From an uncultured Chloroflexia bacterium (GTDB lineage Bacteria > Chloroflexota > Limnocylindria > Limnocylindrales > CSP1-4), in the NCBI GenBank assembly GCA_963814315.1, contig CAWFCG010000001.1:3687-67686 (forward strand): a stretch of 64,000 nucleotides of DNA. Direction: 5' to 3'. This document shows, piece by piece, positions 53,285-62,426 of this stretch; within the stretch, counting starts at the first letter, position 1; the number at the start of each line of letters is the position of its first letter. Under the pieces are notes generated by a model, which was given only the letters and a program-made list of their open reading frames with translations, was not told the origin of the DNA and did no database searches. The position numbers were made by a program, and so were the translations under genes.

Positions 53285-53313
53285 TTGACAGTGCTGTCGG
53301 CGGCCGCTACTGT
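53285..53313 (+). promoter_or_regulatory. Sigma-70-like promoter (TTGACA - 17 nt - TACTGT) driving the aromatic leader and superoperon
   Basis: Consensus -35 at 53285..53290 and a TAnnnT -10 at 53308..53313, read from the sequence. The predicted TSS is ~3-5 nt before the leader ATG. Confidence 0.4.
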
Positions 53314-53323
53314 CCGAAGCCAC

Positions 53324-53350
53324 ATGACACGTTACTGGTACTTTAGCTAG
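53324..53350 (+). CDS. Aromatic-amino-acid leader peptide MTRYWYFS (8 codons, Tyr-Trp-Tyr-Phe)
   Basis: ATG ACA CGT TAC TGG TAC TTT AGC TAG, located 145 nt upstream of the DAHP synthase start and followed by an intrinsic terminator. Confidence 0.5.
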   Translation: MTRYWYFS

Positions 53351-53404
53351 CGGACACGAGGCGGCCGGGGGAGATCCCGGCGGCAGAGGCACTCGTGCCC
53401 GCGA

Positions 53405-53437
53405 CGCAGGACCCTCAGGGGCCTGCGTTTTTTCTTT
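53405..53437 (+). terminator. Rho-independent terminator / attenuator hairpin (CGCAGGACCC-tca-GGGGCCTGCG followed by TTTTTTCTTT)
   Basis: 9-bp GC-rich stem with one bulge, then a 6-U tract. Lies 58 nt upstream of the DAHPS ATG. Confidence 0.6.
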
Positions 53438-59903: not shown

Positions 59904-60343
59904 GGATCCTGCTGCTCAACGGGCCCAACCTGGGTCGCCTCGGCCAGCGCCAACCGGAAGTGTACGGCTCGACGACGCTGGCTGAGGTCGAGGAGGCCGC
60001 AGCCAGCCACGCCAAGAGCCTGGGTCACCAGGTCACGACGTTTCAGTCGAACCACGAAGGGGCGCTCATCGACCGCATCGAGCGACGGGATTACGACGCC
60101 ATCGTCATCAACCCGGGCGCTCTGACGCACTACGCCTGGTCGCTCCACGACGCTCTGCTGGGTGCCGAGTGCCCCGTCGTGGAGGTCCACCTCAGCGACA
60201 TCATGGCGCGGGAGGCATGGCGGCACGTGTCGGTCATCGAACCGGTCGTGAGCCACCGCGTCCTGGGACATGGCTGGCGCGGGTATCTCGAGGCCATCGA
60301 CTACCTGCATGAGCACGCCGCAGACCGCGGCCAGCCCTCCTGA
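59900..60343 (+). CDS. aroQ: Type II 3-dehydroquinate dehydratase
   Basis: ILLLNGPNLGRLGQRQPEVYGSTTL...HEGALID...NPGALTHY matches the type II DHQase signature. ATGA overlap. Confidence 0.85.
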   Translation: MRILLLNGPNLGRLGQRQPEVYGSTTLAEVEEAAASHAKSLGHQVTTFQSNHEGALIDRIERRDYDAIVINPGALTHYAWSLHDALLGAECPVVEVHLSDIMAREAWRHVSVIEPVVSHRVLGHGWRGYLEAIDYLHEHAADRGQPS

Positions 60344-60360
60344 TACCCAGAGGACCCAGC

Positions 60361-61809
60361 ATGACACCCCAACTCCCGCGCCCCGGCCTTGCCGGTGTTG
60401 CCGCTGTCGAGATCAGCGCCGACACCATCTCGCCGGTCACCGCCGCGCTGCGCCTGCACGACCAGCAGCGCCTCGCCTTCATCCTCGAATTGGTCGAGGG
60501 CGGCGCCCGCTACGGCCGCTACTCGATGGTCGGCGTGCGCGGCCGCTACCTCAGCTACGACGATGGCGTGGCCACCATCCACAGCTACGACTACGCCGAA
60601 GTCGATCGCTTCGACGAGGCGGACCCGCTGGAGGCGCTGCGCCGGTTCCTGCCCGAGGTTCCCGTGCAGGGACCGCTGCCGGTGTCGCTGGCATCCGGCG
60701 TCGGCTATCTCGCCTATGAGGCTGCCGCGCACTGGGAGAGACTGCCGGTTCCCGAGGCTGACCCCGTCGGCCTGCCCGAAGCGCTGTTCCACTTGCCGGA
60801 CGTGCTGATCGTCTTCGACCACTTGGGCCAGACGGCCACGCTGGCCACCATCGACGGAGCCGGCGCCGGGGAGCGTTTGGCCGATGCCGCCGCCATGCTG
60901 GCGCGACCTTCGGCCATCGAGGCGGCCGTGCCGATCCCGTCCGGATCCACGCGTCCCCAGCCACCCGCCGCCGATGCGCGCTACGAAGCCGGCGTCGCCA
61001 GCCTGGTCCGTGACATCCACGCCGGCGAGATGCTCCAGACGGTGCTGGCCCGCCGCTTCAGCCTGCCCTGCACGGTGGGGCCGCTGGAGGTCTACCGCTC
61101 ATTGCGTCGCATCAATCCCTCGCCGCACTTGTTCGCCATCGACTGCGGGCCTCACCGCTCGGTGCTGGGTGCTTCGCCGGAGTTGCTGGTGCGGGTGCGC
61201 GACGGCGTCGTTGCCACGCGGCCCATCGCCGGCACGCGACCCCGGTCGGCCGACCCCATCATCGATGCTGAGCTGGAGGCCGACCTGCTGGCCGACGAGA
61301 AGGAGCTGGCGGAGCACGCCATGCTCGTTGACCTCGCCCGCAACGACGTCGGACGCGTGGCCACGCCGGGCAGCGTGCGGGTGCCCTCGCTGCACGCCAT
61401 CGAGCGCTACTCACATGTGATGCACATCGTCAGCGAGGTCGAAGGCGAGCTGGCGGCCGGTCGGGACGCCTTCGATGCGGTCCGCTCGGTGTTCCCGGCG
61501 GGCACGTTGTCCGGCGCGCCCAAGGTGCGTGCCATGCAGGCCATCGCCGAGCTGGAACAGGAGCAGCGCGGTCCCTACGGCGGGGCCATCGGGTTCTTCG
61601 CGCCCGACGACGTGGAGGTCGCCATCACCATCCGCTCGATGGTGCTGAAGGACGGCACCGCCTACGTCCACGCCGGGGCTGGCATCGTGGCTGACTCGGT
61701 GCCGGCCCGCGAATCGGCGGAGGTGGCAGCCAAGGCGGGTGCCATCCTTGCCGCCCTCGCTGATGCCGAAGCCATCTATGGGACCGACCGACCGGAGACC
61801 GACCGATGA
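60361..61809 (+). CDS. trpE: Anthranilate synthase component I (TrpE; PabB-type aminodeoxychorismate synthase not excluded)
   Basis: Chorismate-binding family motifs: the LLES-like element ILELVEGGARYGRYSMVG, plus GTLSGAPKVRAMQ and GGAIGFF. Confidence 0.75.
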   Translation: MTPQLPRPGLAGVAAVEISADTISPVTAALRLHDQQRLAFILELVEGGARYGRYSMVGVRGRYLSYDDGVATIHSYDYAEVDRFDEADPLEALRRFLPEVPVQGPLPVSLASGVGYLAYEAAAHWERLPVPEADPVGLPEALFHLPDVLIVFDHLGQTATLATIDGAGAGERLADAAAMLARPSAIEAAVPIPSGSTRPQPPAADARYEAGVASLVRDIHAGEMLQTVLARRFSLPCTVGPLEVYRSLRRINPSPHLFAIDCGPHRSVLGASPELLVRVRDGVVATRPIAGTRPRSADPIIDAELEADLLADEKELAEHAMLVDLARNDVGRVATPGSVRVPSLHAIERYSHVMHIVSEVEGELAAGRDAFDAVRSVFPAGTLSGAPKVRAMQAIAELEQEQRGPYGGAIGFFAPDDVEVAITIRSMVLKDGTAYVHAGAGIVADSVPARESAEVAAKAGAILAALADAEAIYGTDRPETDR

Positions 61810-62426
61810 CCACGCCCACGAACGACACCACAAGCGACCGCCCCGGCGTGGGCCTACACATCCTGCTCATCGACAACTACGACTCGTTCACCTACAACCT
61901 CTACCAGTACATCTGCGAACTTGGTGCGCTGGTCGAGGTGGCGCGCAATGATGAGATCACGCTCGATGCTATCGGCGCCATGGAACCCGACGGCATCGTC
62001 GTCAGCCCCGGACCCTCGCGACCGGAGAACGCCGGCGTCTCCATGGCGGTCATCGAACGCTTCGGCCCCACCACCCCCATCCTGGGCGTCTGTCTGGGCC
62101 ACCAATCCATCGGGCTGGTCTATGGTGGAGAGGTCATCACCGTGGAGCCGGTGCACGGCAAGAAGTCGGCCGTCGACCATCGGGGCGCCGGGGTGTTCGA
62201 GGGGCTGCCCACGCCTGTGGATGCCGGTCGCTATCACTCGCTGGCGGTCGATCGCGCCACCCTGCCTGACGTGCTGGAGGTGACCGCCACCTCAGCCGAC
62301 GGGCTGGTCATGGGCCTGCGTCATCGTGTGTACCCGGTGGAGGGCATCCAGTTCCATCCCGAGTCGATCCTGACCGAGGACGGCATGACCATGCTGGGGA
62401 CCTGGCTGCGCTCGCTGCGGAGTTGA
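61806..62426 (+). CDS. trpG: Anthranilate synthase component II / glutamine amidotransferase (TrpG/PabA)
   Basis: Class I GATase triad context GVCLGHQSI (Cys) and HPES (His). ATGA overlap with the component I gene. Confidence 0.8.
   Translation: MTTPTNDTTSDRPGVGLHILLIDNYDSFTYNLYQYICELGALVEVARNDEITLDAIGAMEPDGIVVSPGPSRPENAGVSMAVIERFGPTTPILGVCLGHQSIGLVYGGEVITVEPVHGKKSAVDHRGAGVFEGLPTPVDAGRYHSLAVDRATLPDVLEVTATSADGLVMGLRHRVYPVEGIQFHPESILTEDGMTMLGTWLRSLRS

Follow-up and report, generated by a model that had tools for sequence, protein, structure and literature searches.

Operons that join genes of the common shikimate pathway to genes of the aromatic amino acid branches are known from Firmicutes, and the record of near-complete, attenuator-bearing examples goes back to at least 2005 (PMC1173090). 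These include aroFBH-trpEDCFBA-hisC-tyrA-aroE of B. subtilis and the aro/tyrA/pheA supraoperons of E. faecalis and S. pneumoniae, which carry attenuators; by the orders in Table 7 of that study, with gene names as we decoded them here, the latter two hold six common-pathway genes and B. subtilis holds fewer per unit (PMC1173090). Leader peptides with aromatic codons have also been placed ahead of aroF: in C. glutamicum an aroR leader (Phe-Tyr-Phe) precedes the aroF operon, transcription of which rises upon ribosome stalling (Neshat et al. 2014, as summarised in PMC11802643), and a Phe upstream open reading frame (ORF) before aroF has been proposed in Acholeplasma (PMC8632094). Here we describe positions 53285-62426 of a 64-kb stretch of contig CAWFCG010000001.1 from an uncultured Chloroflexia bacterium (hereafter the window, meaning the whole 64,000-nucleotide stretch that was analyzed), which comprise a short leader element followed by eight consecutive genes that encode the entire common shikimate pathway and anthranilate synthase. 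We consider it likely that this is a primary-metabolism operon with a single promoter, controlled by ribosome-mediated transcription attenuation that would sense all three aromatic amino acids.

The features of the locus, in window coordinates, are as follows.

53285-53313, + strand: promoter-like site read from the sequence (-35 TTGACA at 53285-53290, 17-nt spacer, -10 TACTGT at 53308-53313)
53324-53350, + strand: leader ORF of 8 codons, ATG ACA CGT TAC TGG TAC TTT AGC TAG, encoding MTRYWYFS and a stop
53350-53360 paired with 53392-53402, + strand: helix A and helix B, 11 bp, predicted by folding and proposed as segments 1:2, enclosing the G+C-rich hairpin H at 53361-53384
53403-53433, + strand: intrinsic terminator predicted by folding, an 8+3-bp G+C-rich stem-loop (53403-53429) running into UUUUUU (53428-53433)
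53495-54868, + strand: tri-domain DAHP synthase, step 1 (Pfam PF18152 DAHP_snth_FXD, PF00793 DAHP_synth_1 and PF01817 CM_2; NCBIfam NF006421, 474.5 bits)
54865-56226, + strand: aroA, EPSP synthase, step 6 (PF00275, 314.8 bits; TIGR01356, 336 bits, above its cutoff of 287)
56223-57518, + strand: aroC, chorismate synthase, step 7 (PF01264, 361 bits; NF003793, 381.9 bits, above its cutoff of 321)
57518-58303, + strand: aroE, shikimate dehydrogenase, step 4 (PF08501 and PF18317)
58296-59903, + strand: aroK::aroB, shikimate kinase (step 5) fused to 3-dehydroquinate synthase (step 2) (PF01202, PF01761, PF24621)
59900-60343, + strand: aroQ, type II 3-dehydroquinate dehydratase, step 3 (PF01220, 170.5 bits; NF003807, 172.3 bits, above its cutoff of 130)
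60361-61809, + strand: trpE, anthranilate synthase component I (PF04715 and PF00425)
61806-62426, + strand: trpG, glutamine amidotransferase component II, the last gene of the operon (PF00117; TIGR00566 trpG_papA, 223 bits, above its cutoff of 121)

Each of the eight co-oriented ORFs between 53495 and 62426 matches a family profile (Pfam, NCBIfam) over nearly its full length, and together they encode 7/7 common shikimate steps, a chorismate mutase (as a domain) and anthranilate synthase. The initial annotation of this DNA had proposed eight consecutive genes with all seven common-pathway enzymes plus anthranilate synthase, in an order unlike that of the pathway; both points hold, as the profile matches supply the identities and the genes run 1, 6, 7, 4, 5::2, 3 by pathway step. 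The locus is a primary-metabolism operon that carries the route from phosphoenolpyruvate and erythrose 4-phosphate to chorismate, plus both branch-point enzymes (chorismate mutase and TrpEG). For aroE, the top NCBIfam models are all shikimate dehydrogenase, at scores under the equivalog cutoffs (196.7 versus 252). The aroK::aroB gene is a single ORF with no internal stop, in which PF01202 covers residues 20-172 and PF01761 with PF24621 covers residues 249-502; the AroKB fusion scores below cutoff against the NCBIfam fusion models (164.7 versus 565) and is kept in more than 1400 homologues, the commonest length being 535 amino acids. When set beside the Firmicutes supraoperons, the locus is alike in uniting aro and branch genes in one co-oriented unit, in its non-pathway gene order and in its predicted upstream RNA attenuator, but those supraoperons hold part of the seven steps whereas the window holds all seven, has its chorismate mutase fused into the DAHP synthase and follows an unrelated gene order. 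It also includes only the first Trp step and has no tyrA, pheA or hisC. Common and branch genes are contiguous, co-oriented and without space for separate promoters, as expected of a supraoperon, and the operon alone is of a kind already known.

To place the operon among relatives, one genome per species was scanned with an alignment of the AroKB fusion, which returned 80 loci, and the eight window proteins were located in each. DAHP synthase, aroA, aroC, aroE, aroKB (or separate aroK and aroB) and aroQ were co-oriented within 10 kb in 29 of the 80 loci, and these complete aro operons span Chloroflexota classes, Latescibacterota, Gemmatimonadota and Oscillospiraceae. The window's operon recurs in relatives at 52-87% AroKB identity, with the same gene order in Limnocylindria; because gene order is kept in relatives, the cluster is not due to chance. 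Other complete aro operons share with the window the six genes, including the aroK::aroB fusion, and the FXD-type DAHP synthase. The window's clade places aroC before aroE, whereas most of the others place aroE before aroC (Anaerolineae, Ardenticatenaceae, Latescibacterota and one Gemmatimonadota metagenome-assembled genome (MAG)), and the order in Oscillospiraceae is aroG-aroB-aroA-aroC-aroE-aroK-aroQ. In a Latescibacteria MAG (L060, 19-12070), a 13-gene co-oriented run leads from trpE'-trpG-trpD-trpC-trpF-trpB-trpA straight into aroG-aroA-aroE-aroC-aroKB-aroQ, with start/stop overlaps at several trp-gene junctions, a trp-aro superoperon larger than the window's. A Gemmatimonadota MAG (L044) carries trpE-trpG-aroH(CM_1)-aroG-aroA-aroE-aroC-aroKB-aroQ, reaching downstream to about 11960; its functional set is like that of the window, but gene order and chorismate mutase type differ, with trpEG at the 5' end and a separate AroH gene where the window has trpEG at the 3' end and a fused AroQ domain. 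Thermotoga maritima and Clostridium acetobutylicum have complete aro operons too. Collectively, the 29 loci and the Firmicutes supraoperons show that the whole-pathway operon is a recurrent, conserved layout rather than an oddity of one genome. The synteny comparison that the initial annotation had put forward as a check upheld the gene order, while the rarity it had implied does not stand, given the 29 loci in several phyla and the Firmicutes precedents (PMC1173090).

Two further observations concern individual loci of this sample. In the 87% relative (L001/L002), an IS110-family transposase gene lies antisense between aroA and aroC (L001:6477-7700, - strand) and physically splits the operon in L001, and an rve-family insertion sequence (IS; 2593-3492) lies just upstream of the leader of L001. 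The actinomycete Bowdeniella nasicola KPR-1 (L004) carries aroA-aroE-aroKB-aroQ at 7815-12024, 48-57% identical to the window proteins and closer to the window than most Chloroflexota outside Limnocylindria; horizontal transfer or a common origin is possible for this block.

Upstream of the first structural gene, the window holds a compact leader element. The -10 hexamer ends 10 nt before the leader ATG, and the leader has no Shine-Dalgarno sequence; because the predicted promoter lies only 10 nt ahead of the ATG, the leader mRNA would be leaderless or nearly so. Position 53285, at which the initial annotation began the operon, is the first base of TTGACA, and related leaders show the same TTGACA / TAnnnT layout at the same distance. 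The leader UAG runs directly into helix A, the terminator abuts helix B with no spacer, and the DAHP synthase start lies ~60 nt past the terminator. The region has two parts expected of a leader-peptide attenuator, a short ORF rich in end-product codons and, after it but ahead of the structural genes, an intrinsic terminator. A covariance model derived from an alignment of such leaders scores the window copy at 106.8 bits, the sole strong (full-length) match in 64 kb.

At gathering thresholds, Rfam holds no family for the window's leader element. Below threshold, RF02502 Atu_C8, a Rhizobiales small RNA (sRNA), matched over its full length at 33.6 bits versus a gathering threshold of 50. The two are alike in a long helix around a hairpin with a terminator directly after, but the Atu_C8 consensus ORF, as we read it, is Ile/Leu/Val-rich and extends into the helix. 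Membership of the leader in Atu_C8 was rejected on the basis of the score, the Ile/Leu/Val-rich ORF and the different taxon. The Atu_C8 consensus itself starts AUGAUUAUUCUUGUGGUG (M-I-I-L-V-V), followed by the helix-hairpin-terminator layout, and it may be a branched-chain amino acid leader-peptide attenuator instead of a free-standing sRNA. A literature search on Atu_C8 returned nothing relevant.

Metagenomes were scanned with a pattern composed of the conserved helix and terminator arm. This matched at least ~120 stretches, of which ~30 were filtered out as chance matches in coding DNA, leaving at least 88 true leaders, at least 77 of them distinct, with at least 46 different peptides of 8-9 amino acids (for example MSQMWFYG, MTYQWFYG, MTQHNWYYA and MTSFFWFYA). 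Among the matches listed, the peptides of all 77 distinct leaders place Trp at -4 relative to the stop, followed by F/Y/S (-3), Y/F (-2), one other residue and then UAG; the UAG abuts the helix in every leader, the terminator is kept in 77/77, and in the 70 loci with enough DNA the DAHP synthase gene always lies ~100-150 nt downstream. This placement holds in loci with differing upstream genes. Pairing holds in 98.4% of the cells of the leader alignment, compensatory changes occur at 4 pairs of hairpin H, and 2 pairs of the inner terminator stem covary. A link between the Trp codon of the leader and whether the operon includes trpEG was considered and rejected, as Trp is invariant wherever trpEG lies.

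Beyond this family, a second leader type in other Chloroflexota scores 25-35 bits with the same covariance model and has its stop codon inside the helix (peptides MEPIFYFYRNPA and MANRFYFRYPA). Weak model matches also led to longer aromatic leaders with terminators in other phyla or classes, such as a 25-codon leader, MRPTTRPAPAFFFTGWYFNPRVGGV, with a terminator (2607-2746) before the trpE-headed operon of the Gemmatimonadota locus L044. Three Anaerolineae-type loci (L017:2732-2878, L032:2941-3092 and L034:2790-2940) have Tyr/Phe-rich leader ORFs without Trp (e.g. MKRSIFSPNYYAYYYYGLRNRLPLAALKRV) and terminators, which precede an AroH-like gene heading the aro operon. Literature searches on Chloroflexi aromatic leader peptides turned up only a paper on histidine regulation, and those on aromatic metabolism in Limnocylindria found nothing relevant.

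The textbook attenuators of E. coli, trpL and pheL, each respond to one amino acid via tandem codons, have a Shine-Dalgarno sequence and are 14-15 codons long; their regulatory codons lie inside segment 1, and a ribosome at the stop codon covers segment 2. Like these, the window's leader has an ORF with candidate regulatory codons, followed by a predicted 1:2 helix and by a 3:4 terminator that precedes the structural genes. It differs in having 8 codons, in being predicted to be nearly leaderless and in offering 1-2 codons each for three amino acids, and its aromatic codons lie ahead of segment 1, with a ribosome at the stop codon falling short of segment 2. With C. glutamicum aroR it shares a short Phe/Tyr leader peptide upstream of a DAHP synthase operon, but aroR has no Trp, its operon is not the whole pathway, and there is no apparent sequence or structure kinship between the two. 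The leader is, on its predicted features, an uncatalogued variant of classical attenuation, and would be new in its eight codons, its near-leaderless start, its combination of Trp, Phe and Tyr, and its control of the whole chorismate supply together with both branch-point enzymes.

We propose that attenuation would proceed as follows. A near-leaderless transcript would open with the 8-codon ORF MTRYWYFS, with its Trp, Tyr and Phe codons and a UAG set against helix A. When charged aromatic tRNAs are plentiful, the ribosome would finish and leave, A would pair with B (~-33 kcal/mol with the enclosed hairpin), and the terminator at 53403-53433 would form, stopping transcription ahead of the DAHP synthase gene. 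A ribosome lingering on the last aromatic codons would instead cover the 5' arm of helix A, so that the freed linker and helix B could bind the terminator's 5' arm and inner strand (~-11 to -15 kcal/mol), allowing readthrough into the operon. Short motifs suit such a 1:2 / 2:3 / 3:4 scheme (GCGGG, CCCGC, GCAGG, CCUGC). In folds ending before the terminator 3' arm, the candidate antiterminator forms only with the helix A 5' arm masked, and constrained folds with the ribosomal A site on the -2 codon sequestered 4-5 nt of the terminator arm in 67/75 sequences. Masking is reached with the A site on the -2 codon (always Phe/Tyr), partly on -3, and at the stop, given a ribosome reach taken as the usual 12-13 nt, which may not be this organism's. 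A direct pairing of the codon region with the terminator was rejected as a general antiterminator, since it is present in the second leader type (the L019 group) and inconsistent in the window's type.

Several observations weigh against this reading. Full-length folds keep the terminator in every ribosome state tried, and the candidate antiterminator is weak and could easily be displaced (median -11.5 kcal/mol versus -18.7 for the terminator, with -33.5 for the long helix plus hairpin). A stall at the invariant Trp (-4) leaves helix A untouched and sequesters 0 terminator nt in 75/75 sequences; since a Trp stall at a 12-13-nt reach misses helix A, masking does not explain the best-conserved codon. 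In contrast to E. coli trpL, a ribosome at the stop codon masks helix A and not B, and because it cannot reach B, plenty and starvation would differ by dwell time only, that is, kinetically. Neither helix A:B nor the outer terminator stem varies, in part because the search pattern fixed both, so A:B yields no covariation evidence, and the antiterminator is likewise without covariation support. On the side of the gene identities, TrpE, AroE and AroKB all score under NCBIfam equivalog cutoffs.

Given these difficulties, we considered whether the leader functions without classical masking, such that UAG dwell or pause-release coupling operates and the A:B helix, or a factor binding it, decides termination. 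Among the matches listed, Trp -4 is invariant in 77/77 and yet beyond reach for masking helix A, and each leader ORF ends in a UAG set directly against the helix; the primary sequence of A, B and the outer terminator arms is likewise unvarying even though the DAHP synthases of these relatives are ~58-66% identical to the window's, which suggests constraints past simple pairing, and the weakness of the predicted antiterminator points the same way. However, this invariance is partly imposed by the search pattern, neither an alternative structure nor a binding partner was identified, and the true ribosome reach may not be 12-13 nt in this organism, which would leave room for classical masking; we judge this explanation unlikely. 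A broader form of the idea, in which the element represents a widespread uncatalogued attenuator class of Limnocylindria, with a nearly leaderless ORF of 8-9 codons that offers about one codon each for Trp, Phe and Tyr, with control over all chorismate supply and with a non-classical step (UAG dwell, pause release or ribosome-helix sterics), is in our view doubtful, and, if true, this class would be a minimal natural model for three-input attenuation.

The junctions bear on whether the eight genes form a single regulatory unit. In order they are GTGA (4 nt), ATGA (4 nt), TGATG (1 nt), an 8-nt overlap, ATGA (4 nt), a 17-nt gap and ATGA (4 nt), and these overlaps of stops with starts probably couple translation of adjacent genes. 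Junctions of 1-4 nt with one 18-nt gap had been described; five overlaps agree with that range and the gap is indeed single, but the aroE/aroKB overlap is 8 nt and the aroQ/trpE gap, which holds a GAGGA Shine-Dalgarno sequence, is 17 nt. The aroE/aroKB value depends on the start chosen, being 8 nt with GTG at 58296 and 32 nt with ATG at 58272; the GTG is preferred because it gives 535 amino acids, the commonest homologue length, and agrees with the independent L001 gene call. A generic consensus scan, whose promoter rule demands A as the second and T as the sixth base of the -10 hexamer besides 9/12 matches, gave no promoter-like or terminator-like hit within the operon on the + strand. The same scan missed the upstream promoter and attenuator terminator because of its promoter rule and a bulge in the stem, and that region was then folded directly. 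The whole operon is most likely transcribed from the single sigma-70-type promoter predicted at 53285-53313. The proposals of translational coupling and of one upstream promoter with one attenuator are consistent with the start/stop overlaps, with the single promoter-like site and single leader-peptide/terminator element, and with the empty internal scan.

It is conceivable that the genes are adjacent without forming one regulatory unit, with internal promoters (for example at trpEG) and with the hairpin and U-run ending a small RNA or the transcript of the upstream NUDIX gene. Consistent with this, trpE comes with a Shine-Dalgarno sequence of its own and, unlike the other genes, is not overlapped, and the leader has its weak sub-threshold match to the Rhizobiales sRNA family Atu_C8 (33.6 versus 50 bits); the IS110 between aroA and aroC in the 87% relative further implies that, in that genome, expression of the genes beyond the insertion either passes through the element or does not depend on the upstream promoter. 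Against these points, 6/7 junctions are stop/start overlaps, too tight to accommodate a promoter and an untranslated region, and no promoter-like or terminator-like consensus site was seen on the + strand in the operon. In addition, leader ORF, helix and terminator lie 100-150 nt before the DAHP synthase gene whatever genes lie upstream (among the matches listed), and the NUDIX gene ends ~450 nt upstream, with an IS element between NUDIX and leader in L001. Together, these findings make separate units quite unlikely, and we retain the single attenuated operon as our reading.

Only the appended trpEG is particular to the window's subclade. Among the 80 loci, trpE-trpG lies downstream of aroQ only in the window, L002, L003, L129, L131 and L140, whereas other Limnocylindria carry the trpE-trpG pair upstream on the opposite strand, followed in L199 by a gene with anthranilate phosphoribosyltransferase domains (trpD). 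The window TrpE has a TrpE-type N-terminal domain plus a chorismate-binding domain and scores best against TrpE models; its top model, TIGR00564, gives 452.5 bits, under the equivalog cutoff of 517.7, and the best PabB model 305.7. The protein is 62% identical to TrpE of L097, L189, L199 and L200 and 47% identical to that of L009, and despite the sub-cutoff score we assign it as an orthologue because of the 62% identity to trpE in relatives' trpE-trpG(-trpD) operons. In L009, the one locus tested, the DNA ahead of trpE (2354-2651, - strand) matches the T-box over its full length, with a UGG (Trp) specifier, at 68.5 bits; this falls below the Rfam threshold of 93, and E is 9e-15 for a search of that small size. 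A similar element may precede trpE in L143 and L199, and the window trpE, 17 nt past aroQ, has no T-box-like leader. In our reading, the window TrpE would be the usual TrpE, whose gene left a trp operon under its own regulation and now stands at the end of the aro operon.

We regard it as highly improbable that the cluster is a precursor cassette for a secondary metabolite (phenazine, chloramphenicol, aminobenzoate) in which TrpEG acts as an aminodeoxychorismate or 2-amino-2-deoxyisochorismate (ADIC)-type synthase, as the sub-cutoff TrpE score, the PabB matches, the sharing of TrpG-type amidotransferases by anthranilate and aminodeoxychorismate synthases and the lack of trpD, trpC, trpF, trpB and trpA in the window are outweighed by housekeeping neighbours with no tailoring, nonribosomal peptide synthetase/polyketide synthase (NRPS/PKS), resistance or export genes at the flanks, by conservation of the operon across a whole class and further, by the closest solved relatives of this TrpE being TrpE proteins (anthranilate synthases), by its 62% identity to TrpEs followed by trpG (and by trpD in L199), by the Trp-specifier T-box-like leader ahead of the 47% identical L009 trpE, and by a leader that holds codons of three proteinogenic end products.

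The first enzyme of the operon combines three domains: ferredoxin/ACT-like at the N terminus, a type I-beta barrel, and an AroQ chorismate mutase at the C terminus. Residues 1-328 align end to end with T. maritima-type DAHP synthase (best solved relatives 4grs and 1rzm). The mutase domain can be aligned to AroQ mutases of solved structure; in our own reading of that alignment it keeps residues matching the catalytic set of E. coli, except that Lys39 is replaced by Arg, as it also is in the aligned M. tuberculosis enzyme. Among the 120 best homologues, barrel and mutase domain occur in 120/120 and the N-terminal domain in 113/120, the other seven being shorter sequences. The T. maritima enzyme has the ferredoxin/ACT-like domain alone as its accessory domain, and the P. 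nigrescens and P. gingivalis enzymes have a C-terminal chorismate mutase alone, whereas the window chain carries both. Chorismate mutase is fused at either end of DAHP synthase in known enzymes, with ACT-type regulation cited as a separate solution, and the C-terminal AroQ domain of the Prevotella-type enzyme is often the organism's only chorismate mutase (PMC8408635). The window thus pairs in one DAHP synthase two allosteric modules that PMC8408635 treats as alternatives, and a literature search on DAHP synthases with both accessory domains found nothing relevant.

The remainder of the 64-kb window is otherwise ordinary chromosome, with sugar ABC transporters, ROK regulators, serS, class I lysS, greA, H+-PPase, coaBC, coaX, panC, gdh (glutamate dehydrogenase), DegV and NUDIX genes. 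The operon is flanked by NUDIX, DegV, glutamate dehydrogenase, a VapBC-like pair and an ABC sugar transporter; among the window genes, no tailoring, NRPS/PKS, assembly, export or resistance gene flanks the cluster, and the 64 kb hold no further aro or trp gene. Between the NUDIX gene and the aro promoter, 52840-53284 (~450 nt) has no ORF with an identified family match, and the equivalent space in L001 is occupied by an IS element. At the other end, a PIN-domain (VapC-like) gene (62445-62834, - strand) and a small upstream ORF (62838-63113, - strand) are likely a toxin-antitoxin pair; the PIN-domain gene converges on the end of trpG, with 18 nt between stop codons and no terminator seen between them. 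The class I-type lysyl-tRNA synthetase gene (PF01921; 27674-29365, - strand) adjoins serS, and the sole Rfam gathering-level match in the window is a tRNA (24616-24702, - strand). The nearest relatives, by protein and by locus, are Chloroflexota MAGs that bear the names Candidatus Limnocylindria/Limnocylindrales. The organism is Limnocylindria-like and not an actinobacterium, and the Actinobacteria, which the initial annotation had used as its frame of reference, give way to these relatives.

Since whole-pathway shikimate operons are the normal layout in several poorly studied phyla, the window's operon is not exceptional, and the operon layout itself changes little. Part of what the locus adds lies in its regulation, where three solutions can be compared: an aromatic leader for the common pathway, a T-box-like element before trpE (L009), and, in the window's subclade, trpEG placed under the leader peptide. 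The leader family, with at least 77 variants and absent from Rfam, would combine three amino acids through three or four codons in an 8-codon ORF, and may serve as a small system in which to learn how attenuator output is set by the distance of the codons from the first helix.

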